A DNA stretch of 64,000 nucleotides, from NCBI GenBank assembly GCA_946611195.1, contig CAMODB010000004.1, forward strand, positions 33 through 64,032, read 5' to 3'. Positions within the stretch are counted from its first letter, which is position 1; each line of letters opens with the position of its first letter. The notes beneath the pieces were generated by a model. That model saw only the letters and a list, made by a program, of their open reading frames with translations. It ran no database searches and was not told the DNA's origin. Of the stretch, positions 35,982-48,690 are shown piece by piece. This DNA is from an uncultured Bacillota bacterium (GTDB taxonomy: Bacteria > Bacillota_I > Bacilli_A > ML615J-28 > CAG-313). Made by a program: the position numbers and the translations under genes.

Positions 35982-36338
35982 TTAAGATAGTATTATACTA
36001 GACAAAACGTCGTTTAATTTTGGTATATCATTTAATATTACTTCATATACTATCGTATAATCAGTTTTACCATAATCATGTACAATTCTATTTCTAAAAC
36101 CTATGATATCATTCCAACTGATATTGTTATATTCGTTTTTAAACGAAGCACTCAATTTTTTTATATTTTCGCTAATTTGAATTAGTCTAAACAATATAGC
36201 ATCAATTAACTGATCATCTTCAATAAATTCTTCATATGAAATATTGCCTGTGTACTTCAATATTTTATGAATATCTTCTAAAATTATATTGATATAATAT
36301 TTATCGTCTTTTGTATTATCCATATATCTTAATACCAT
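35982..36338 (-). CDS. hepT: HepT (DUF86/HEPN) toxin of a type VII TA system
   Basis: RNRIVHDY matches the Rx4HxY HEPN motif. Overlaps the upstream MNT gene by 23 nt. Confidence 0.8.
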   Translation of the reverse strand: MVLRYMDNTKDDKYYINIILEDIHKILKYTGNISYEEFIEDDQLIDAILFRLIQISENIKKLSASFKNEYNNISWNDIIGFRNRIVHDYGKTDYTIVYEVILNDIPKLNDVLSSIILS

Positions 36339-36798
36339 CTTTCATTATTTCATTTATTAATTCAAAATTATCTTTTAAATCGTGGAAGCGAATGACATCG
36401 ACATTTTTGTTTAATGCTTGATGTAGTTTTTCGACTAATCCTACAAATTTTAAACCTGTAAGAGTAGTATCAATACATAGATCTACGTCACTATCTTCTT
36501 TTGCGTAACCTTTTGAGTATGAACCAAATAAATAACAAAAAGATATGTCCGCTTTGTATTGTTCAAGCACACTTAGAATAATTACTTTTAGTTTTTCTAA
36601 AGAATATATCCCTTTAGTCTCATTCATCTCATATTTTTCAATTAATAAATCCATTATTTTTTGATATTTTATATTTGCTTCGTCAGTACTTGCTTCATAT
36701 CTTATATATGTTCTTAACGGAATTCCGACAGATGTTGAAGCTTCTATTTGCGTTATACCAAATGATTTTCTTAATTCTTTTAAATTCATTTTGCTCAC
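36316..36798 (-). CDS. mntA: MntA nucleotidyltransferase antitoxin with an N-terminal XRE-type HTH
   Basis: GSYSKGYAKEDSDVDL matches the GSx10DxD NTase motif. N-terminal LRKSFGITQIEASTSVGIPLRTYIRYE is the HTH. Confidence 0.8.
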   Translation of the reverse strand: MSKMNLKELRKSFGITQIEASTSVGIPLRTYIRYEASTDEANIKYQKIMDLLIEKYEMNETKGIYSLEKLKVIILSVLEQYKADISFCYLFGSYSKGYAKEDSDVDLCIDTTLTGLKFVGLVEKLHQALNKNVDVIRFHDLKDNFELINEIMKDGIKIYG

Positions 36799-36809
36799 CT
36801 ACCACATAT

Positions 36810-36890
36810 ATTATATCATATTGGCATTATTTGTCAAGAAAAAAATGCCATTTTGACATTATTTTTTAAGAAATAAGTGCCATTTTGACA
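36810..36890 (-). promoter_or_regulatory. mntA-hepT promoter (TTGACA, 16 nt, TATAAT) with two upstream 13-bp direct repeats TGTCAAAATGGCA
   Basis: -10 at 36810-36815 and -35 at 36832-36837. The repeats lie at 36846-36858 and 36878-36890, 32 bp apart. Confidence 0.65.
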
Positions 36891-36960
36891 CTTTTGTTTT
36901 TACTTTGATGCAATAAAATCAATACTTTCTTTTTTATTTTATCATTAATTATATAAAAAA

Positions 36961-36990
36961 GACATTTTACTTAATTGTAAAATGTCGATT
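36961..36990 (-). terminator. Hairpin terminator downstream of the RES ORF
   Basis: GACATTTTAC / GTAAAATGTC stem, with TTTTTT following on the minus strand. Confidence 0.5.
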
Positions 36991-37219
36991 GTTTCTCTTT
37001 GGCAAAGTTATACATTTTGATACAAAACGTTTGCCACTTGGTTCAAATCGTTTGCTACTAGTTTTTATATGCTTTTGCACTAATGAAAATGCTAGATAAG
37101 GATGATTATATAAAAGCTACCCAGCGATTAAGTTGAGTAGCTTTGTTTTATTTTCTAAACCTAGAATAAGATAAATCTAGAACACGACATTTTTCTTTGT
37201 AATCTTTTGTTTCAAAATA

Positions 37220-37807
37220 CTATTCCTCAACCCCTACTTTAGCTAAAGGGAGTAAACAATTACTGTAATATTTTGGAAAAGGCGTATAGTCGTATGTGTC
37301 TGCACATACAATTCTATTACAATTCTTTCCAGGTAAATTCCCCATTCTTAAACGAACTTGGCTTATTGATAATTTTCTAAAGCTTTTTTCAAAGAAAAGG
37401 AAGTTTACGCCACCTGGATTAGCAACAGATTTATAAACTAAACAATCAAGTCTTAATTTTATTATTCCATTAATGACGTTTATTTCTTGCTCATTGAATG
37501 CAATTCCGTTTTCGTTTTTTTCTAATATTTTATGTATTTCTTTTCTTGCTGTATCAATCTAATCGGACCAATAAGATAGTTTTTGGTTAGGAAAAAGTGT
37601 GGAGTATCTATTGTTAACGTTGGATAATCTCAAATTTCCTTCATTTAATTTAAAAACATTTTTGTTGCAAAATGATGGATTGAATTCAACACATCTAAAA
37701 AAATTGAATTCATCAGTAACGTATACAGGAAATTTGTTATGCTTATAAACATTTCTTTCCCAATCATGATTAGGAAATAATGGTGCACTGATTAATTTGC
37801 CACCCAC
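37220..37807 (-). pseudogene. RES-domain toxin interrupted by an in-frame TAG (37559-37561)
   Basis: FFRCVE and NNRYS supply the Arg region, TARKEI the Glu, and YKSVANPGGVNFLFF the Ser block. Together these match the R-E-S layout. The 82 and 112 codons are in one frame, separated by TAG. The start is GTG. Confidence 0.55.
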
Positions 37808-37839
37808 TAATTAAAATCTTCTTTTATTCCTTATATCAA

Positions 37840-38697
37840 TTATTCTTTGTTATTAAATTTGTTAATACCAATCATATTGTAAAAATCCTTTAAAAATCTC
37901 TCTACATTTGAATCAATCATCCTATATAAAAACTCATCTTCGAATTTAGATAATTTATCCTTAGAATAATATGCTTCAGCGATAGATGTAGCCATAGCAC
38001 CTATTGTATCTGTATCTCCTCCTACCGCAACACAGTTTCTTATAGTATCTTCTATGCTATTAGATATTAAAAAACAATATATAGCTATAGGAACAGATCC
38101 TTGACATGAACTATTAAACTTATAATTTTTTACTAACTCATTAAAATCTAAATATTCTATTTCTTTATAATATTTATTTACCATTATTTTCTTTATCTCT
38201 TCTTTAGTAGAACCATGAAGAGATAAAAATATAGATAACGCAATAGCTTCTGCACCTTTAATTCCCTCAGGATGATTATGAGTAACTTCTGATACTGCTC
38301 TAGATAGAATTGTTACTTCTTGAACACTTCTAGCTATCCAACCAACCGGTGATATTCTCATTGCGCTACCATTACCATAAGAATTATATGGTTTTAAAAT
38401 AGACTTACTTTCATATGATTCTTTACACCAATTATAAAACATTCCACCAAAGCCAATATTCTTATGTTTATTCCAAGTATTAATAAATTCTATACATAGA
38501 TCTTTTTTTATTCCTTCTAATGATTCTTTAGAATAATTAATAGGATAATGTTTCATTAATACTTTCATTACCGCAAGAGTAAGAATAGAATCATCTGTCA
38601 TCCTCATTCTAATATCATATATATTAAAATCTTTTGTTTTACATGGATGAAATTCATAAATAGAACCAACCATATCTCCAATAATTGCGCCTAACAT
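37840..38697 (-). CDS. ADP-ribosylglycohydrolase (ARH/DraG family)
   Basis: N-terminal MLGAIIGDMVGS and C-terminal GGDTDTIGAMATSIAEAYY are ARH hallmarks. Confidence 0.75.
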   Translation of the reverse strand: MLGAIIGDMVGSIYEFHPCKTKDFNIYDIRMRMTDDSILTLAVMKVLMKHYPINYSKESLEGIKKDLCIEFINTWNKHKNIGFGGMFYNWCKESYESKSILKPYNSYGNGSAMRISPVGWIARSVQEVTILSRAVSEVTHNHPEGIKGAEAIALSIFLSLHGSTKEEIKKIMVNKYYKEIEYLDFNELVKNYKFNSSCQGSVPIAIYCFLISNSIEDTIRNCVAVGGDTDTIGAMATSIAEAYYSKDKLSKFEDEFLYRMIDSNVERFLKDFYNMIGINKFNNKE

Positions 38698-38886
38698 CTA
38701 TTTTTTATTTAAAAGATTGATTGAATCCAAAACGTTTGATTTAATCAATCCTTTAGTAACTCCTTTCGTTTTAATTAAATATTTATCTAATCCAAATTCA
38801 TAATAGTCAAATAATCTATCATCTAATATGATAAAGTTATCTACTGCCATATCTTTATTATCACAATCTTCTAAATAGTCTATGAT
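38698..38886 (-). pseudogene. 3' remnant of a HAD-like gene (…FIILDDRLFDYYEFGLDKYLIKTKGVTKGL…)
   Basis: A short open frame ends in TAG directly abutting the ARH ATG. It has no plausible N-terminus, and the frame closes at 38887. Confidence 0.3.
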
Positions 38887-39033: not shown

Positions 39034-39068
39034 GTCTTTATAACAGTGAAAATTATAAAGACCTTTTT
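39034..39068. terminator. Bidirectional rho-independent terminator
   Basis: A 10-bp stem: GTCTTTATAA pairs with TTATAAAGAC. T runs follow on both strands. Confidence 0.65.
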
Positions 39069-39137
39069 AATAATGGAAAAACGACTTGTTCTTTATACTA
39101 TTTAAAACAAAAACAATTTGAAGAAATATTTTAACTT

Positions 39138-40331
39138 TTAGAATGGAAGATCATCTACATCAAGATCATCTATTTCTTGACTAATACTATCCTGTTTCTT
39201 ATTTAAATTATTAATAACTCTTAGTTGTAATACAGTTGGTATAAACATAGAAACTAAAGAATAAATATCATCAAATGAATATTCATAATTAAAATGATAT
39301 ATTTTTCTAAATAAATCAAAATATTTTTTATCTAAAAATAATGTTTCAATTGTATTATCGATAATTGCTATTTTTACTAAATTATCTCTAGATGTGCTAG
39401 ATATTGGTTTTTTCAAGTTACTTATTATTTTATTAATTTGTGAACAAGCATTTTTATACTTTTCTTTTAATTCTTCATTAAATTCAAAACTAATAGTAAT
39501 GTCATCATCTTCAATCTCTTGTTCTAGCATATTTCTACCATAAATAGTGCACTTAGTTTCATCAGCTATAATCGTATTTTCTACACTACCAAGTACATAA
39601 TATTCATAATCAGCAATAATAAGCATCTTAGAATGGCAATCTGTTATCTTCAAATCTCCAAAATTTACATTTTTATCTTCATTTGCATCGTAATTTTCAA
39701 GTTCATATTTCTCAACATCAAAAAATTCATCATTATCAAAAAATTCAACCTCAAAAAGATGCCATGTATCATAAACGTATTTTAATTTTTCATATAGCAA
39801 ATAATCTTTATTATTAATTGCATTTTCTGTCATATTAAAGTATTCATTTTTACCATAGATTCTATATTTCTCATATAATTCTTGAGAATAATCGTCATGC
39901 ATACCTTCAAAAGCTTTATAAGAAAATACAGCTCTACTATAAGAATTGGTTACAAAATGTATTAAAGAAAGCAATTCGTGAGTTTGATTAACAAAGTGAT
40001 AATCGTTTTCATCAAACATTTTTACTTTTACTATATTCTTATCACTACAACTATTTGCATTAGATAATAAATCGAGCATTTTAAGTACAACGCCTTTATA
40101 AAATCCTTTTTCGATAGATCCTTTTTCCTTTATTACTAAAGAATCTTCTCTTATATATTCGCATTCACATTTAGTTTTTAAAACAAAGTTTTCTTCGTGT
40201 AAATCTGGTACAAAAGTAATCAAATATTTTTGATGACATTTTACTATCTCGCTATTATTGTTTTCTACAAAATTCTCATCAAATATTATTTCAACGCTTT
40301 TACCTATTATTCCTCTTTTACTATAAGCCAT
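39138..40331 (-). CDS. Hypothetical acidic protein ending in an SSB-like C-terminal tip (…EIDDLDVDDLPF)
   Basis: AATAGGAGGATTT-ATG SD. No signal peptide. I recognise no family. Confidence 0.6.
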   Translation of the reverse strand: MAYSKRGIIGKSVEIIFDENFVENNNSEIVKCHQKYLITFVPDLHEENFVLKTKCECEYIREDSLVIKEKGSIEKGFYKGVVLKMLDLLSNANSCSDKNIVKVKMFDENDYHFVNQTHELLSLIHFVTNSYSRAVFSYKAFEGMHDDYSQELYEKYRIYGKNEYFNMTENAINNKDYLLYEKLKYVYDTWHLFEVEFFDNDEFFDVEKYELENYDANEDKNVNFGDLKITDCHSKMLIIADYEYYVLGSVENTIIADETKCTIYGRNMLEQEIEDDDITISFEFNEELKEKYKNACSQINKIISNLKKPISSTSRDNLVKIAIIDNTIETLFLDKKYFDLFRKIYHFNYEYSFDDIYSLVSMFIPTVLQLRVINNLNKKQDSISQEIDDLDVDDLPF

Positions 40332-40469
40332 AAATCCTCCTATTTACCAATATAAGTTTTATTGTATAATATTTTTCAGCCACTATTAACATGCAATTGC
40401 ATAATATAGGTATTTTAAAAATGACATAATACATTGTCAAAATATATATAAAAATAAGTTTCAATTGTA

Positions 40470-41297
40470 TTACTCTACATCTATTTTATAATATTCAGAG
40501 TTAGTAAATCTATAGTCTTCCGGATAATAACTTTGTAAGAAACTATCAACATCTTTTATTTGAGTAAAAATTTTTAATCCTTTATAAAATAGTTTTTCAG
40601 GAATTAGTTTAACTACATATTTACTTAAATTTTTAATTCTAAAATTTTTCCGCATTCCACCATGTTCTGTAATAGAAGCATCATATATGAGTTCTAAATG
40701 AAATGAATCTACATCGTCGCCGCTTTCTGTTAGCAAATCTTCAATAGAAATATTTTCTATCATAAGAATTACTCTTGGACTATCTTTAAATTTGTTGTAT
40801 TCAGAGATTATATAATTGATGGATTCCTCAATTCCTAGATCAATCTTTAAATCCCTTAAACCAACAGCATTAAAATATGCAAAACGAGCAACTTCTCCAA
40901 TTTTAATATTAGAAAAAGTTACAGCAGATAAGAAATTGATAGTAACATAGAAATCTCCATATTCATAGTTATGCATTTCTCCAAATGTCAGAGTATGTTC
41001 TTCGCAAAAATAAGTATTGCGAGTTTTTCTGTATTCGTTAATTGTACTTACAATTTCTTTATTTTTTTCGTTTGAAAAATAATATTCTTTAACAGCTTTC
41101 ATAATCTTTATTGAATGATCATGAATTAATTTAATTTCATTCATGTCGCACTCAAGAGCTGCTAAAGACGTCCCGTGAAATAAAGGCTTTCTACAAACTT
41201 TCATATCAGATGTATCTATTTCTTTGCCAAAATAATTCATCAATGATTTTTCATCGATATTTATATAGTTAATCTTTTCCATAAAAATTATTCTCAT
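40470..41297 (-). CDS. Hypothetical protein with ADP-ribosyltransferase-like (H-Y-E type) motifs
   Basis: PLFHGTS (H41), GDFYVTINFLSAVTF (Y117-x10-F128), and candidate Glu strands VILMIEN / FHLELIY. The start codon is uncertain. Confidence 0.35.
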   Translation of the reverse strand: MRIIFMEKINYINIDEKSLMNYFGKEIDTSDMKVCRKPLFHGTSLAALECDMNEIKLIHDHSIKIMKAVKEYYFSNEKNKEIVSTINEYRKTRNTYFCEEHTLTFGEMHNYEYGDFYVTINFLSAVTFSNIKIGEVARFAYFNAVGLRDLKIDLGIEESINYIISEYNKFKDSPRVILMIENISIEDLLTESGDDVDSFHLELIYDASITEHGGMRKNFRIKNLSKYVVKLIPEKLFYKGLKIFTQIKDVDSFLQSYYPEDYRFTNSEYYKIDVE

Positions 41298-41379
41298 CCT
41301 ATAATCAATTTTTTAGTGTAGATGTTCTATATGGTTTTATATTATATATTATTTAAAAACATTATTAATTCATCAATTT

Positions 41380-42648
41380 TTATATAGTAATTCCTTTACT
41401 TTCCATTTTTTTAACAATATTAGAATACTTTCTATTTTTATTGAAAGAAGCTGTATCAGCAATTTGATTAGATATTCTAATTAAATCACCATTTTCTAAT
41501 TTGATAATATCATTAAAGAATCTTGAAGAATCTTTAATATTACTAACTAAGGAAGTCATTTGAGGAAATTCACTATCTATTTCAGCAAATGAATTAATAT
41601 TATAACGTTTAATATATTCATTAAATAATTCAAAAACAATCCTTCTCTTACTTTTTTCCTTACTTTTAGCTGGTTTTGTAGATGAACTAACTTTTTTAAC
41701 GTTCATACCATAGCTAATACCAATATATTTATCACCTGGATTTGCTATTTTTGTTTGTGTGGATAACATTAATTTACTTAGATAATCATCATATTCACTT
41801 CCATATCTTTTTCTAAACTGCTCTTGGGCATATTGTTGTAGCTCTAGCATTTCACCAACATCATTATTTTTTACTTTTATATCAGGGGCAAAAGTATGAC
41901 AACGGTTTTTACCAGATTTTGGTGTTAAAATATAATTTAAAGGACATGCTAATCTTAAAAAATGAGCTTTTAATACATCTATTGCTTGTTTAGGAGCATT
42001 AACTATTACCCTTGAATAAAAACTACCATACTTATCACTTCTTGGTAAATAATCTTCATATTCGCCACGAGTAATACCATATAGTTTACACCACTCACTT
42101 TCATTCATGCTCTTACCATTTATTAAATAATCCATTCCACTATCAATAATGTGTGATATTTTATATCCCGAATCAGCAAAACCAGGATTTTTACCTTTCT
42201 TACCATCTATGGAGTAAGCTGCTTTTACTTTTTCGTATTTCGAGTCACATGGACCAAATCTTGCAGGAAACTCTCTAGAAATCATTGCTTCTTTAAACTC
42301 ATGATAATCAGGCACATATTCATCTAAGGCCAACTTATAAAAATATGCAGCAAAGAAATTATCAGTAAAAAAATAAGAATATTCATTAGTTTGAGTAAAA
42401 AAGCCTCTTCTTAAAGAAATATAGTTCTTTTTACCTTTCTCAGTATTATTATAGTTTCTAATAACAAAAACAGCATCAGGATCATTAATGTACTTTAAAA
42501 GCATATGATATATACCAATAACAACATCCTTCTTAGGTAAACAAGGCTCTACAAAGTGTTCCCAGAATTCCTTTATAGTATTATCACTACCATCTTTAAT
42601 AACATCTATCTTTGGTTTATTTAGAGTTTTAAGTTTATCAATTAGCAT
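41380..42648 (-). CDS. Hypothetical protein, 422 aa
   Basis: Long ORF with coding-like composition. I recognise no motif confidently. Confidence 0.5.
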   Translation of the reverse strand: MLIDKLKTLNKPKIDVIKDGSDNTIKEFWEHFVEPCLPKKDVVIGIYHMLLKYINDPDAVFVIRNYNNTEKGKKNYISLRRGFFTQTNEYSYFFTDNFFAAYFYKLALDEYVPDYHEFKEAMISREFPARFGPCDSKYEKVKAAYSIDGKKGKNPGFADSGYKISHIIDSGMDYLINGKSMNESEWCKLYGITRGEYEDYLPRSDKYGSFYSRVIVNAPKQAIDVLKAHFLRLACPLNYILTPKSGKNRCHTFAPDIKVKNNDVGEMLELQQYAQEQFRKRYGSEYDDYLSKLMLSTQTKIANPGDKYIGISYGMNVKKVSSSTKPAKSKEKSKRRIVFELFNEYIKRYNINSFAEIDSEFPQMTSLVSNIKDSSRFFNDIIKLENGDLIRISNQIADTASFNKNRKYSNIVKKMESKGITI

Positions 42649-42681
42649 TATTCATATTTCCTTTCTTATTACAAATTTATA

Positions 42682-43269
42682 TTAAAATAACTTTTTCATA
42701 CTTCCAGTTACGCCATCTTCCATAAATACATTTATATCTTGATTCATTAATATTTTCATAATTTCAGCGCCGTTTTTTGAATCATATATAGCATCAAAAG
42801 CTATTTCCCAAAGTTTCCTATATAATTCTTTATTATTTAGATCCAATTTAAGTTCACTTCTCGTATATGGATGTATACTAATTAATTTACTAGTAGAAGA
42901 TTCTACTAATTCTGCACAACCAACTTGTTTTTGAAAGGTAGGTGCGTATAAATTGATAACATATTTTTTATTAATATTTTGTTTGTTAGTATTTGAATAT
43001 ACAATGTAATTTTTAAATTTAATAAGAGCACTTCGATAACTATTATGGCTTTTAGCTCCAAGATCTTTTTTATTACCTTCAGTGTAATCATAACATAATG
43101 TTTCAATATTGTCATGAATATCTTCTAGTGTTATTTCTTCAAATCGACATATCATTATTATTCTTTTACAATAATCTTCAACCGTACTATCACTTAAATT
43201 AGCCTCTTTTTTTAAATATTCACGAAAACCATTTAAATCTTTTTTATCAATATTTTTATATTTATTCAT
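42682..43269 (-). CDS. Hypothetical protein whose N-terminus resembles an integrase-type SAM-like/core-binding helix bundle
   Basis: FREYLKKEANLSDSTVEDYCKRIIMICRF. AGGAG SD and a consensus promoter lie upstream. No catalytic recombinase domain. Confidence 0.45.
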   Translation of the reverse strand: MNKYKNIDKKDLNGFREYLKKEANLSDSTVEDYCKRIIMICRFEEITLEDIHDNIETLCYDYTEGNKKDLGAKSHNSYRSALIKFKNYIVYSNTNKQNINKKYVINLYAPTFQKQVGCAELVESSTSKLISIHPYTRSELKLDLNNKELYRKLWEIAFDAIYDSKNGAEIMKILMNQDINVFMEDGVTGSMKKLF

Positions 43270-43292
43270 AAATATCTCCTAAATACGCTTAT

Positions 43293-43321
43293 ATTGTAAC
43301 ACACTAATTTTGGTGTGTCAA
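43293..43321 (-). promoter_or_regulatory. Consensus promoter TTGACA, 17 nt, TACAAT, with an inverted repeat ACACAC/GTGTGT in the spacer
   Basis: The minus strand reads TTGACAcaccaaaattagtgtgtTACAAT, followed by AGGAG and the ATG of the 195-aa ORF. Confidence 0.65.
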
Positions 43322-43571
43322 GTGTTTTGATTAAAAAAATTTTTTTCTTACAAGATGCAAACTATTAATACTAAATCACTCTATAAGCTTTTGATCCTAT
43401 TATACAAAAAAGATGTGTCGAAATTGACACATCTATTATTGAATTTGATTTAATATATCCAACAATTTCTTTTTGAACATCATTGGTTATAATAATTCTA
43501 TCTTTTTGGATAACTTTTATATTGTCATCTGGCAAAATTATCTTTACAAGAAAAAGCACAAAAATATAAAA

Positions 43572-44879
43572 TTAAAATGGTAATGGTCCATCATCGTCAT
43601 CAAATTTTGATGAATATTTATATTTTTCTTTTTCTTCAGCTTCTTCTTCAGCTTTTGTTTTTTTAACAATAAATTTATCACCATTCTTATCCACTATTTT
43701 GCAATGTAAATCTTTTAAAACCATTTTTATATCTTTATGAACTTTTAGTTCTTCATAGTTTTCTTTTATCACATGTATTAACATGTAATATGGATTAGAT
43801 TTTGTGCCTATATATGCGCTGCTATTATAAAAGTTGCACTTAATTCTATATTTATGTGGTTCTTCTATATCGGTTGGTCCAAAAAATTCTTCCGTAGTAT
43901 ATCCTTCTCCATACCCAATAATATCATCAGCTATTTCAGCATTTTCTGGTAAAATAATTCTCTCTAAATTAAAACATCTTCTAAATGCTTCATTCCCAAT
44001 TTTCTCAACACTATCAGGAATGACTGCATTCTCTAAACTAACACATTCGGAGAAAGCCAAGCTATCAATTATCTTTAAAGTTTTTGGTAAATTTATTTCT
44101 TTAAGCTTTTTACAACCAAAAAATGCACTATCACCAATTCTTTTTAAATTACTAGAAAAAGTAATGTTTTTCAAATTACTACAATTACGGAATGCATCTT
44201 CCTCAATCACTTCAACGCTATTAGGTATTACTATACTTTCTAAATTCGTATTACCAGAAAAAGCACTTTTACCTATTATTTTTACACCTTCAGGAATAAT
44301 AGAATTCTGACATGTGGCAATTAATAACATCTTCGTCTTATCAACAATAACATTTGAATTAAATGATCCATAATTAGGATTGCTATCATCAATTACTATT
44401 TTTTCCGCGTTTTTAAAAAATTTAGAATAACTATCACCACACTCAATATATTCAACACTATCTGGAATAATAATACCTTTTGCAGAACAATCTACATCCA
44501 AGTAAACATGAGTTAATGCATCTGGAATAGTAATTTCGTCAATTGCATCAATGTATTTACTTTTAATTCCTGCTGTTCCTGTAAAAGAATCATACTCAAA
44601 TAAATCATCTTGCATAATATCATATGTAGATTTTTCTACTAAATTGTAAACAGTTGCTTTTCCATTTGCAATTATTTTTAATTCCTTACTATCATTAGAT
44701 AATAATAGTACAATCTTATTCATCTCACTTGATATTCTATATTCTAATCTTTCGTTCACTCCTTGCATATCATAATCAGCCGTATAATCAACATCTAATT
44801 TAAATTCAGGAGCTGTTATATCATTTTTTTTGTTTTTATTAATCACACCTGTTATTCTAAATCCATCGACCCAAGACAT
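43572..44879 (-). CDS. Cytoplasmic BspA-type LRR (LRR_5) protein ending in an SSB-like tip (…KFDDDDGPLPF)
   Basis: Repeats of the form IP.SV..I...AF..C..L. No signal peptide. A Lys/Glu-rich linker precedes the acidic tail. Confidence 0.65.
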   Translation of the reverse strand: MSWVDGFRITGVINKNKKNDITAPEFKLDVDYTADYDMQGVNERLEYRISSEMNKIVLLLSNDSKELKIIANGKATVYNLVEKSTYDIMQDDLFEYDSFTGTAGIKSKYIDAIDEITIPDALTHVYLDVDCSAKGIIIPDSVEYIECGDSYSKFFKNAEKIVIDDSNPNYGSFNSNVIVDKTKMLLIATCQNSIIPEGVKIIGKSAFSGNTNLESIVIPNSVEVIEEDAFRNCSNLKNITFSSNLKRIGDSAFFGCKKLKEINLPKTLKIIDSLAFSECVSLENAVIPDSVEKIGNEAFRRCFNLERIILPENAEIADDIIGYGEGYTTEEFFGPTDIEEPHKYRIKCNFYNSSAYIGTKSNPYYMLIHVIKENYEELKVHKDIKMVLKDLHCKIVDKNGDKFIVKKTKAEEEAEEKEKYKYSSKFDDDDGPLPF

Positions 44880-45299: not shown

Positions 45300-46235
45300 T
45301 TATTTTTTTATTTTAGCCTCACACTCAACATATTCATCATCATCATCTTCATCATCAGCTTCATTAAAACTATTTAAATGAATATATTTGTCTGTCATAT
45401 CAATTGAACCTACAATTACACTTTTTAAATTATCGCACCACCAAAATGCATTATCCTTAATTCTTACTAATTTATTTTGTATTTCAATTTTTTCTAAAGA
45501 ATGGCACTTACTAAATGCATCTTCTTCGATTTCTTTTACACTTTCTGGAATTGCTATATTTGTCAATTTATAACATTCTCTAAATGCTTCTGTTCTTATT
45601 GTATCAACTTTGCTTGAAATAACAATATCAGTTAATTGTTTGCATCCAGCAAATAATCCAATATTAATTTTAGTAATATTATCTGATAATTTTATATGTT
45701 TTAGACTAGTACATCCCGCAAATGCCCCTTTTCCAATTTCTTTTACACTATCAGTCATGATAATTTCATTAATTCTTGTGCATTTGGCAAAGGCCCAATC
45801 GCCTATTCTTTCTACTGAATTTGGAATATTAACTCTAGTCAAACTTTTACAACCACAAAATAAACCTTCTTGAATAGTTTTTATGCTATTTGGTATTTCT
45901 AATCGATTAATCTTTTTTTCATTTAAATATAAAGCACTACCATAAAATAGCGGATTGGAATGCACTGAAACAAAATCTATTTTACACCAAGATTCAACAC
46001 TGCTTATACCAACATATTTAATTTTTTTGCATCCAAAAAATGCTTCTTTTCCTATTTTACGCACACTCTCAGAAAGTATTATTTTCTTAATATTATTGCA
46101 ATTTAAAAATGCATTGTCTTGTATTTCGACGACCCCATTAGGTACTACAATAGATTCTTCGTCACATCCTTTTATTAAAACATTATCTTTAATTATTAAG
46201 CTCAAACTTTTATTCCTCCCATTAAAAAATATCAT
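45300..46235 (-). CDS. Cytoplasmic BspA-type LRR (LRR_5) protein with an acidic C-terminus
   Basis: At least 8 repeats of the form IP.SV..IG..AF..C..L. No signal peptide. Confidence 0.65.
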   Translation of the reverse strand: MIFFNGRNKSLSLIIKDNVLIKGCDEESIVVPNGVVEIQDNAFLNCNNIKKIILSESVRKIGKEAFFGCKKIKYVGISSVESWCKIDFVSVHSNPLFYGSALYLNEKKINRLEIPNSIKTIQEGLFCGCKSLTRVNIPNSVERIGDWAFAKCTRINEIIMTDSVKEIGKGAFAGCTSLKHIKLSDNITKINIGLFAGCKQLTDIVISSKVDTIRTEAFRECYKLTNIAIPESVKEIEEDAFSKCHSLEKIEIQNKLVRIKDNAFWWCDNLKSVIVGSIDMTDKYIHLNSFNEADDEDDDDEYVECEAKIKK

Positions 46236-46539: not shown

Positions 46540-47223
46540 TTATTGTTCAATCTTTTCTAACAATCCTTGTAATTTGCATATAAGATGATTGTAATCACCT
46601 TTTACATCTTTGCAATGCAAGATAGGATTATACGCTCCGAATAAATTTAGGCTTTCAGATGATGAATCGGAAAATGAAAACAATGGAGATCCATCAAATT
46701 CTGGAGGAAAAGCAGTTTTTATAGCACCAAACTATTCAATTGTTCCATTGTAAAAAACATCTTTCATTTTAGTAAACTGAAAAGCATTGGAGCTTATAGA
46801 CTCTATAGCTTTGCTGAGTTTAATCTTTGAAAGCAATTCACAATGAAAAAACGCCCTTGCGCCAATAGATACAAAAACTAGTTCAGTGATAAGCTTGCAA
46901 TTAGAAAAGGCTTCTTCTTCAATACGGATAAGTGATTTAGGTAATTCTTTTTTTGCAAGTATCAATTTATAGCACGAAGAAAATGCAGAAGAACAGATCT
47001 CAGTTATTGAGTCAGGCAGATTAATTGATGATAGGTTTATGCATCGCGCAAAGGCAAGCTGATTGATTCTACGAAGAGATGATGGTAGTTCTACTGAAAT
47101 AATAGATTCGTTATCTTTGAAAGCACTATCGCCAATTGCAATCGTTCCTTCAGGAACAACCACATATCTATTGTGACCAATATATTTAATTAAAACACCA
47201 TCTTTAATTTCAAAATCCCCCAT
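46540..47223 (-). pseudogene. BspA-type LRR protein split by an in-frame TAG (46732-46734)
   Basis: 163 codons, then TAG, then 63 more codons in the same frame. The junction FYNGTIE*FGAI fits the common LRR_5 C-terminal motif GT.EQW..I. Confidence 0.5.
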
Positions 47224-47252: not shown

Positions 47253-47831
47253 TTAATATGGAAAATAAGCATTTTTTATTTTTGAAATTTCTCTTTTTAG
47301 TTTTTTATTACACTCTTCTAAATCAAAAGAATTAAAATCTAACATTGTATGTCTTCCTCTTTTTATAAATAATAAAGGATATTCTAAAGGTTTACCATCT
47401 AGGTAATCTTCTAAAATGAATTTCCCATCTTCTACAATACCATATCCGACTCCATCAACAACTCTTGGAATTCTATATATTTCTTTTAATTCAATTTGTT
47501 CTATTACTTCAATAACAAATTCGTAATTTTCACCAAAATCATATGTCATCATAAATTTATTGTTTTTAATATCTAATTGATCTAAAGTTACTGACCAAGT
47601 ATTAATACCTTTATCCGGATAACCCATTTCTTCAGCTTCTCTTAAACTGATTTCACATTCATATTTTTTAAAATCATCTTCAAATTCGTATAAATGATAT
47701 GCTAATGTATTAAATATTGAAAGAATTGTAAATGCTAATTCATCTAAATCATTATCATGTTTAAATAAAATAGTTCTATTTAACCTATCTTCATAATTAT
47801 TAAGCGATATTTTTAATTTATAATATTTCAT
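47253..47831 (-). CDS. pRiA4b ORF-3-like (PRiA4_ORF3) family protein
   Basis: MKYYKLKISL....R.I......L.EL...I......HLYEFE matches the PF07929-type N-terminal pattern. Confidence 0.55.
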   Translation of the reverse strand: MKYYKLKISLNNYEDRLNRTILFKHDNDLDELAFTILSIFNTLAYHLYEFEDDFKKYECEISLREAEEMGYPDKGINTWSVTLDQLDIKNNKFMMTYDFGENYEFVIEVIEQIELKEIYRIPRVVDGVGYGIVEDGKFILEDYLDGKPLEYPLLFIKRGRHTMLDFNSFDLEECNKKLKREISKIKNAYFPY

Positions 47832-48321: not shown

Positions 48322-48690
48322 TGGTGGATGTGCTGGGAATTGAACCCAGGTCTTAAACTTTACTCAATATGTTTTCTACATGTTTAGTTTATTTTTAGTT
48401 TTCAATTAATATTTGAAATAAACAAATAAATATTAATCAAAGCTATTTTCTCGTTGATTTATTTAGCAGATAAATCAATAAAGTCTATTTTCTGAAATCA
48501 AGAATATTCATAGACAAAACATTTCTTGATATAAACCATCTATTTCAAGATGGGCGCTTTACAAATTAGTATGCAAAGCTATAATTTTGATTGTTTGCGT
48601 TTATATTTAAATAAACCTCAGGTTTTAACGTGCCTACCCACGACATGCTTACACATCTAAAAAAATCTAATCGAATCCTAAAACACACCC
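48322..48690 (-). ncRNA. ssrA: tmRNA (transfer-messenger RNA)
   Basis: The 5' end GGGUGUG pairs with the 3' end CACAUCC-ACCA, including the G3:U alanine identity pair. T-arm GGGUUCAAUUCCC. 5' GGAUUCGA box. Candidate tag ORF GCA AAC AAT CAA AAT TAT AGC TTT GCA TAC TAA at 48598-48566. Confidence 0.85.

Follow-up and report, generated by a model that had tools for sequence, protein, structure and literature searches.

A four-gene block near ssrA in an uncultured Bacillota bacterium is a product of cassette shuffling around a conserved g1-g2 pair

The DNA considered here is a 64-kb stretch (64,000 nucleotides, referred to throughout as the window) of contig CAMODB010000004.1 from an uncultured Bacillota bacterium, in which positions 39,034 to 43,321 contain four genes, g1 to g4, that the first-pass annotation had put forward as a candidate novel module. 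Comparison with related loci shows that the four-gene block is an accident of cassette shuffling and not a conserved module; what stands of the proposed unit is the pair g1-g2, which, unlike the quartet, is a conserved unit. In the reading preferred here, which is held with about as much confidence as reserve, the block belongs to a mosaic conflict island made of at least three independently exchangeable cassettes, in which g1-g2 would be a DNA-directed effector.

All four genes together were seen only in rumen contigs almost identical to the window (L001 and L008 in our numbering of loci), and a sheep-rumen metagenome contig carries a stretch identical to the window. The first-pass annotation had given a lack of co-occurrence in other genomes as grounds for refuting its module, and such a lack is what the loci show. 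Of 41 loci that were fetched using g2 as query (the neighbourhood survey covers 45 g2 loci), none carries g3 or a full-length g4, and L005, from a sister strain, is alone in carrying fragments of g4. The DNA that L005 shares with the window comprises a gene for an ADP-ribosylglycohydrolase (abbreviated ARH or ARG; 96% identical) together with part of the neighbouring HAD gene, a 123-bp stretch just 5' of this ARH/HAD block, two g4 fragments, and a weak stretch (69% identical) within g2. The gene order in L005 is HAD-ARH-HAD-(SAM-like protein)-(g2 homologue, 43% identical), and that in the window is g1-g2-g3-g4-(HAD remnant)-ARH. The quartet should not be cloned as a unit.

The evidence for a g1-g2 unit comes from the distribution of the g1 domain relative to g2 homologues. 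The g1 gene (42682-43269, minus strand) encodes 195 residues, and the first-pass description of its product as having a SAM-like or core-binding-like N-terminus with no recombinase domain is borne out: residues 12-88 match Pfam Phage_int_SAM_1 (PF02899) with 31.8 bits against a gathering score of 22.3 (E 1.8e-7), the domain occupies about residues 2-100, weaker matches are obtained to the FliZ, XerC and XerD models, and searches of the family libraries give neither a recombinase catalytic domain (R-K-H-R-H-Y) nor a Phage_integrase match. The SAM-like domain is established as DNA-binding in tyrosine recombinases and in FliZ. The likeness of g1 to the core-binding domain of tyrosine recombinases, or to the stand-alone FliZ type, is limited to this match, whereas the absence of a catalytic domain, an unrelated C-terminal half that matches nothing known, and a partner (g2) that is not a recombinase set it apart from them.

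A SAM-like protein lies immediately 5' of the g2 homologue in four lineages (the window, the L005 group, L025 and L038); the protein directly preceding the L005 g2 homologue has the SAM-like domain of g1 (30% identity), and its own homologues sit before the g2 homologues of L025 and L038. In at least seven others (P0018/L019, P0023, P0017, P0015, P0034/L004, L022 and L015) the SAM-like domain is instead fused to the C-terminus of the g2 core, as found with a profile built from the SAM-like domains upstream of g2 (first-pass hidden Markov model E values of 1e-6 to 1e-4). Adjacency in some genomes combined with fusion in others is standard evidence of a functional link, and g1 and g2 are therefore taken to be functionally linked. 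The C-terminal domains of other g2 homologues vary, a gene for an MrcB_N DNA reader lies upstream of the g2 homologue in L004, and a second MrcB_N match occurs among g2 neighbours. Since SAM-like, MrcB_N and other modules are swapped in this way, the constant part of the system is a core of ~320 residues, and the variable part, judged from its sequence, looks like a nucleic-acid-binding module.

The core itself belongs to g2 (41380-42648, minus strand; 422 residues), whose family is rare, with 54 clusters among 5.8 billion proteins, and spans at least four phyla (Bacteroidales, Fibrobacter, Clostridia and other Bacillota, with plasmid-borne members in Treponema saccharophilum and Bacillus mycoides). 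The conserved core is followed by a variable C-terminal domain at about residues 330-422. Seventeen alignment columns are invariant, and these are mostly polar or charged (Arg, Asp, Asn, Glu, His): R64, R80, R81, G82, F83, D96, N97, E139, H166, G171, R213, F230, R232, P236, N238, P243 and E266. The AlphaFold2 model of g2 has a mean predicted local distance difference test score (pLDDT) of 90 and a predicted template-modelling score (pTM) of 0.75, and comparison with the PDB using Foldseek returns no structural neighbour (best E 4.7). No match to g2 was found in Pfam, PADLOC, PHROGs, NCBIfam or PDB sequences, and the g2 profile finds nothing among PDB sequences. On the basis of the model, and with comparison covering the PDB, the g2 core is provisionally regarded as a new fold. 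Profile searches of Pfam and the PDB and Foldseek searches of the PDB also give no nuclease fold (PD-(D/E)XK, HNH, GIY-YIG or PLD); candidate assignments of g2 as HNH, PD-(D/E)XK or PLD were rejected on motif inspection, which showed no consistent motif spacing.

The first-pass statement that none of the four genes can be placed in a named family is upheld for PADLOC, PHROGs, NCBIfam and the PDB, and the SAM-like domain of g1 is the sole Pfam match among them. As to known defence systems, PADLOC v2.0.0 gives no match at E <= 1 for g1 to g4 or for the leucine-rich-repeat (LRR) protein encoded just upstream. The first-pass annotation had also considered that the genes might prove to be phage genes; they are not, as scans of viral contigs (IMG/VR) and tblastn against 50,697 phage genomes reveal no relatives of g1 to g4. 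Matches to METTL6 and RhoGEF (E > 0.05) in the PDB searches with the four proteins and with the g2 and g3 profiles were dismissed as chance. In Treponema and Bacillus, the proteins encoded upstream of g2 were considered as g3-like or SAM-like and are neither. Comparison with hhalign shows no relationship between the profiles of g2 and g3.

The neighbourhoods of g2 homologues are of defence type and contain genes for a DUF2779/Cas4-like nuclease (7 of the 45 loci), WYL-WCX regulators (7, plus 5 with a second WYL family), a 569-residue IetA-like AAA ATPase (6), BspA-type LRR proteins (6), an m5C methyltransferase (3) and type I HsdM/HsdS (3), and several loci have PD-(D/E)XK nucleases, AIPR or UvrD helicases; there is also one Vsr match. 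L027 has an AAA-WYL-g2 operon. A Bacteroidales cassette consisting of the IetA-like AAA ATPase, WYL-WCX and a g2 homologue is seen at L027 4289-8371 and also in L028, L003, L020, L021 and L051, often with the DUF2779/Cas4-like nuclease included, and by itself looks like an undescribed candidate defence system. A literature search for DUF2779 returned nothing bearing on these genes.

ADP-ribose hydrolases of three different folds are found near g2 in five loci (the window, L005, L015, L010 and L029). In L005 the ARH gene and two HAD_SAK_2 genes lie near the g2 homologue; in L015 a DarT1-type NADAR abuts the g2 homologue tail-to-tail, with no DarT detected nearby; in L010 a PARG is near the g2 homologue; and L029 has a g2-NUDIX-PARG operon. 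At L015 961-3573 the NADAR (E 2.4e-66) is also co-directional with a 615-residue WYL-containing protein, relatives of which occur near g2 homologues in several other loci. The presence of a DarT1-type NADAR, PARG or ARH beside g2 homologues, together with a DNA-binding partner, recalls the toxin-antitoxin pairs DarT-DarG and DarT1-NADAR, which act through DNA ADP-ribosylation; the present loci differ from these in that no DarT or other ADP-ribosyltransferase (ART) domain was detected and in that the L015 genes are arranged tail-to-tail and are not operonic.

In context the loci also resemble the predicted ARG-centred systems of section 3.8 of Iyer et al. (2022; PMC9503650), in which an ARG occurs together with a phosphatase, a regulator of the WYL or Nudix type, a Macro or NADAR enzyme and variable nuclease effectors, and which are proposed there to counter viral ADP-ribosylation. 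The g2 loci would fit this template with g2 in the variable-effector position: the ARG is flanked in L005 by genes for a phosphatase (HAD_SAK_2), of which the window keeps a remnant, no ART or sirtuin domain was detected among the neighbours of the window ARH, related loci have WYL or Nudix, NADAR or macro-type (PARG) components and variable, tightly linked effectors, and modules are gained and lost between close relatives. They differ from the systems of that section in that no WYL or Nudix regulator is called in the window (35-48 kb) and its HAD gene is a 50-residue remnant, whereas the HAD genes flanking ARH in L005 are intact; in that the g2 core is strongly conserved and not fast-evolving; and in that those systems come from actinobacteria, planctomycetes and proteobacteria, whereas the present loci belong to Bacillota and Bacteroidota of the rumen and gut. 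No mention of the g2 family was seen in that section.

The third gene, g3 (40470-41282, minus strand), is shorter than the 275 residues of the mechanical open reading frame (ORF) extending to 41297, as its start is probably M6 (41282), which is the start given by the gene caller and by all close homologues in the family alignment; its product then has 270 residues. A full HMMER scan yielded 50 representatives of the family, and a word-indexed search only g3 itself. All 8 of the 8 genomic loci are from Bacillota metagenome-assembled genomes, the family is restricted to Bacillota, and a plasmid search found no homologues. The ART-like motifs that the first-pass annotation had noticed are present as invariant residues of the family (H41, G42, Y117, G134 and E135 in 37 sequences), and the order H, Y, E recalls the ART H-Y-E triad, but E135 lies just 18 residues past Y117; the ART fold itself did not emerge from comparison with the PDB and BFVD or from profiles. 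In the g3 model (pLDDT 94) E135 begins a helix, not the strand that bears the catalytic Glu in ART folds, and neither the PDB (best E 1.7) nor BFVD (best E 0.11) yields a structural neighbour of the model, ART or otherwise. Searches with g3 of Pfam, NCBIfam, PHROGs, PADLOC and PDB sequences gave no match, and its profile against the PDB nothing meaningful. In 3 of 10 g3 loci a g2 homologue is near (the window; L010, adjacent and in reverse order; L015, 3 kb away), which is far more than chance would give for so rare a family. Since none of the 41 loci fetched with g2 carries g3, it is regarded as an occasional partner of g2. Its other upstream neighbours are unrelated to one another, and among the proteins encoded near it are a CPBP/Rce1-like protease and one of the TMEM164 family.

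The fourth gene, g4 (39138-40331, minus strand; 397 residues), has only three homologues and no match in Pfam, NCBIfam, PHROG, PADLOC or PDB sequences. Its C-terminus, DDLDVDDLPF, agrees with the first-pass report of a tail like the one in SSB (single-stranded DNA-binding protein), and the likeness covers the tail only. The homologues end in DDLPF, DDLPF and DDDFNF (EEDDLPF and DDDVDDDFNF are among the tails), so that an acidic tail with an aromatic last residue is kept in 3 of 3. A second such tail, DDDDGPLPF, ends the 435-residue BspA-type LRR protein encoded just 5' of the block (43572-44879, minus strand), which has no obvious signal peptide and looks cytoplasmic. Family searches detect no SSB or OB-fold domain in either protein, and by sequence neither is an SSB. 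The SSB tip, DDD(I/L)PF, is a docking peptide for many genome-maintenance proteins (PMC5872125), and the tails of g4 and the LRR protein may dock on the same partners. Their occurrence on two unrelated non-SSB proteins in one island suggests deliberate docking onto the SSB partner network; a literature search for SSB-tail mimicry found no description of it for defence-island proteins. An 84-codon ORF in L005 ends in EDDYLPF. The LRR protein is one of three BspA-type LRR_5 gene products encoded between ssrA and the block (43572-44879, 45300-46235 and 46732-47223), none with an obvious signal peptide; the 311-residue member ends in a long acidic run, and in other phyla, too, homologues of g2 and g3 repeatedly have LRR_5 genes nearby.

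The position of g4 is not fixed. It is found among different neighbours in L057, as remnant fragments in L005, and in L058, where the sequence after it corresponds to that found immediately 5' of the g1 promoter in the window, so that g4 there precedes g1, in the slot occupied by the LRR gene in the window. The g4 leader travels with the gene and includes the perfect 12-bp palindrome that had been reported at 40391-40402 (ATGCAATTGCAT), between the g4 promoter and its ribosome-binding site. The palindrome is a single perfect copy, and as a 12-mer by itself is weak evidence; in L058 it reads ATACAATTGTAT, a symmetric double change that keeps the symmetry, and in the decayed L005 copy of g4 it reads ATACAATTGCAT.

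The signals around the four co-directional ORFs are otherwise largely as first described. The promoter in front of g1, P1 (43293-43321, minus strand), is TTGACA-17-TACAAT with an extended -10 TG and matches the consensus at 11/12 positions; the inverted repeat ACACAC...GTGTGT (43299-43318; 6-8 bp) is present in its spacer and is a possible operator. The promoter in front of g4, P2 (40440-40412, minus strand), is TTGACA-17-TAAAAT, also 11/12. Across the window there are four occurrences of TTGACA-N17-TAHAAT where 0.22 would be expected, 4/4 of them on the coding strand, and these near-consensus matches are therefore very probably genuine promoters. A terminator-like hairpin at 43411-43434 (minus strand) closes the unit of the upstream LRR gene, and P1 thus opens a new transcription unit. 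The terminator after g4 (about 39034-39068, minus strand) folds as a hairpin of 16 pairs with an A run 5' and a U run 3'; it is absent from the list produced by a simple terminator scan because it is AT-rich, and was found by folding. A search from g1 to g4 found no terminator. Apart from the window, the SAM-like/g2 cassettes of L005 (9040-9075), L025 (6030-6060) and L038 (about 150-180), which are from three organisms of 27-43% G+C, have in common ACAC(A/T)AAAACACAAAA just 5' of the -35 box and a TATAATAATGCA -10 region; the window itself has 27% G+C, and its P1 has just a faint echo of this element (AAAACAC-TTGACACACC).

The block lies in a variable island of defence type, in agreement with the first-pass description of an ssrA-adjacent island with toxin-antitoxin genes, and both landmarks are in place, with the tmRNA gene (ssrA) at 48322-48690 and an MNT/HEPN toxin-antitoxin pair (NTP_transf_2 plus HepT-like) at 35982-36798. 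The ARH of the window (37840-38697, minus strand; 285 residues; Pfam PF03747, E 1.9e-34) is the stable neighbour common to the window and L005. Next to it, at 38698-38850 (minus strand), are the 50 C-terminal residues of a HAD_SAK_2 phosphatase, 86% identical to the C-terminus of the intact 163-residue gene product of L005 (6555-7046); in the window, the remainder of this gene seems to have given way to the g4 cassette. No clear att repeat of the tmRNA 3' end, integrase or step in G+C content was found at the island boundaries, and the region is therefore described as variable and not as a demonstrable integrated element. The tag peptide predicted for the tmRNA, ANNQNYSFAY, ends in FAY, unlike the common LAA type, and the gene is followed by two terminator-like hairpins (48308-48284 and 48269-48236). 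Directly after ssrA is a gene for a 192-residue PRiA4_ORF3-family protein (47253-47831), whose 90% cluster, with 173 members from many contigs, is by far the largest of any island gene and points to a mobile or repeated element. Two features precede the MNT/HEPN pair: the only perfect 12/12 promoter of the scanned stretch (36810-36837; TTGACA-16-TATAAT with TG), and a 32-bp repeat in tandem (36817-36880). The interval 36870-37840, about 1 kb 3' of ARH, has no called gene and only short ORFs, one of which (37559-37807, 82 residues) looks like a fragment of a RES-type domain, and is probably gene debris.

In the preferred reading, the island 3' of ssrA would have been assembled beside a decayed ADP-ribosylglycohydrolase/HAD-phosphatase core. 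The first of its cassettes, P1-g1-g2, would be the split version of a two-part protein, in which g1 may bring g2 to DNA and g2, with its enzyme-like core, would act as a DNA-directed, restriction-like effector that may work in concert with enzymes for the removal or breakdown of ADP-ribose. The second, g3, would be a separate enzyme-like family (invariant H, Y and E) that sometimes rides with g2. The third, P2-palindrome-g4-terminator, would be a self-contained, lineage-specific unit whose product may dock through its acidic tail on SSB-tail-binding proteins. The arrangement attributed to g1-g2 is similar to type IV-style reader-plus-effector restriction (as with McrB-N readers), in that a variable DNA-binding module is fused or adjacent to the constant g2 core and most g2 loci are solitary, with no methyltransferase, in a defence island; it differs in that the g2 core, known here from sequence and model, has no recognisable nuclease motif or fold. 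Likewise the tails of g4 (DDLPF, kept in homologues) and of the LRR protein are like the SSB tip (DDDIPF or DDDLPF), whereas the OB-fold domain of SSB is missing from both.

Several points weigh against this interpretation. In the g2 core there is no known motif or fold, of nuclease, ART or other type, from which a biochemical activity could be read. An ADP-ribose hydrolase is present in just about 12% of g2 loci, and, as defence islands are enriched in such enzymes anyway, their link with g2 may be island co-residence. The ARG-centred core is incomplete in the window, where there is no WYL or Nudix regulator and the HAD gene is truncated. The proximity of g2 and g3 in three very divergent loci means that g3 may be a true partner and not a passenger, and, given the lack of an internal terminator, g1 to g4 may still be co-transcribed here from P1 and function together.

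The last of these points leads to the original proposal, that of one four-gene defence or toxin-antitoxin operon running from P1 to the terminator with its four products acting jointly. Co-directional genes, a strong P1, the lack of an internal terminator, a clear terminator after g4, the co-occurrence of g2 and g3 in three divergent loci and the defence-like surroundings speak in its favour; nevertheless it is quite improbable, given that the quartet is limited to near-identical contigs, that g4 has its own promoter and is sited elsewhere in L057, L058 and L005, that the 41 g2-derived loci are devoid of g3 and of full-length g4, and that PADLOC finds no match. A similarly doubtful reading gives the genes no enzymatic defence role and takes them for orphan cassettes, of immunity or accessory type, from loci of polymorphic toxins or surface proteins. 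On the Treponema plasmid the homologue does have immunity genes (Imm6 and Imm1) and a RelE toxin gene around it, and the BspA-type LRR genes near g2 and g3 and the protease and TMEM164-family neighbours of g3 are in keeping with such loci, but the invariant charged and polar residues of g2 and g3 are typical of enzymes, g2 is fused to DNA-binding domains, and it shares operons with genes for restriction-modification, WYL regulators and AAA ATPases.

The hydrolases invite a different explanation, in which g2, or g3 with its H...Y...E residues, would be a new NAD-using ADP-ribosyltransferase toxin acting on DNA, with g1 as its guide and ARH, NADAR or PARG as the antidote, much as in DarT-DarG or DarT1-NADAR. 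Hydrolases of three unrelated folds beside g2, among them that of the L029 operon, the L015 NADAR with no DarT nearby, the DNA-binding partner domain, and the invariant H-G, Y and G-E of g3 in the order of the ART triad are all consistent with it. It is nonetheless rather unlikely, as the confident g2 and g3 models match no ART, sirtuin or other PDB structure (nor, for g3, any in BFVD), g3 E135 is at the start of a helix and not on the ART catalytic strand, most g2 and g3 loci have no hydrolase, and g4 with its terminator separates the window ARH from g3. A further reading, in which g2 would be a type II restriction endonuclease of the usual kind but with a novel sequence family, is very improbable: a co-directional m5C methyltransferase gene is directly upstream in L034, L039 and L042, and a Sau3AI-family enzyme adjoins the g2 homologue in Bacillus, but in most loci, the window included, no methyltransferase gene lies within 5 kb, a type II enzyme on its own would be lethal, and families of restriction enzymes do not usually have a core as conserved as that of g2.

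Within the reading of a mosaic island with g1-g2 as its DNA-directed effector, a more specific and rather speculative version can be formulated, which we consider unlikely: the g2 core would be a new-fold enzyme for writing, reading or cutting at ADP-ribose, or at some other bulky modification of DNA, guided by g1 or by the fused copy of its domain, with ARH, NADAR or PARG and NUDIX or HAD enzymes in a balancing role, and with g4 and the LRR protein using SSB-tail mimicry to plug into the SSB network. If true, g2 would represent a class of conflict effector that is new, acts on DNA and has neither an ART or sirtuin fold nor that of a known nuclease. Rare, cross-phylum, strongly conserved and confidently modelled, the g2 core has no relative in Pfam, PADLOC, PHROGs or the PDB; if g2 is an effector, it would represent a new catalytic domain for bacterial immunity and would offer a concrete handle on the predicted anti-ADP-ribosylation systems.

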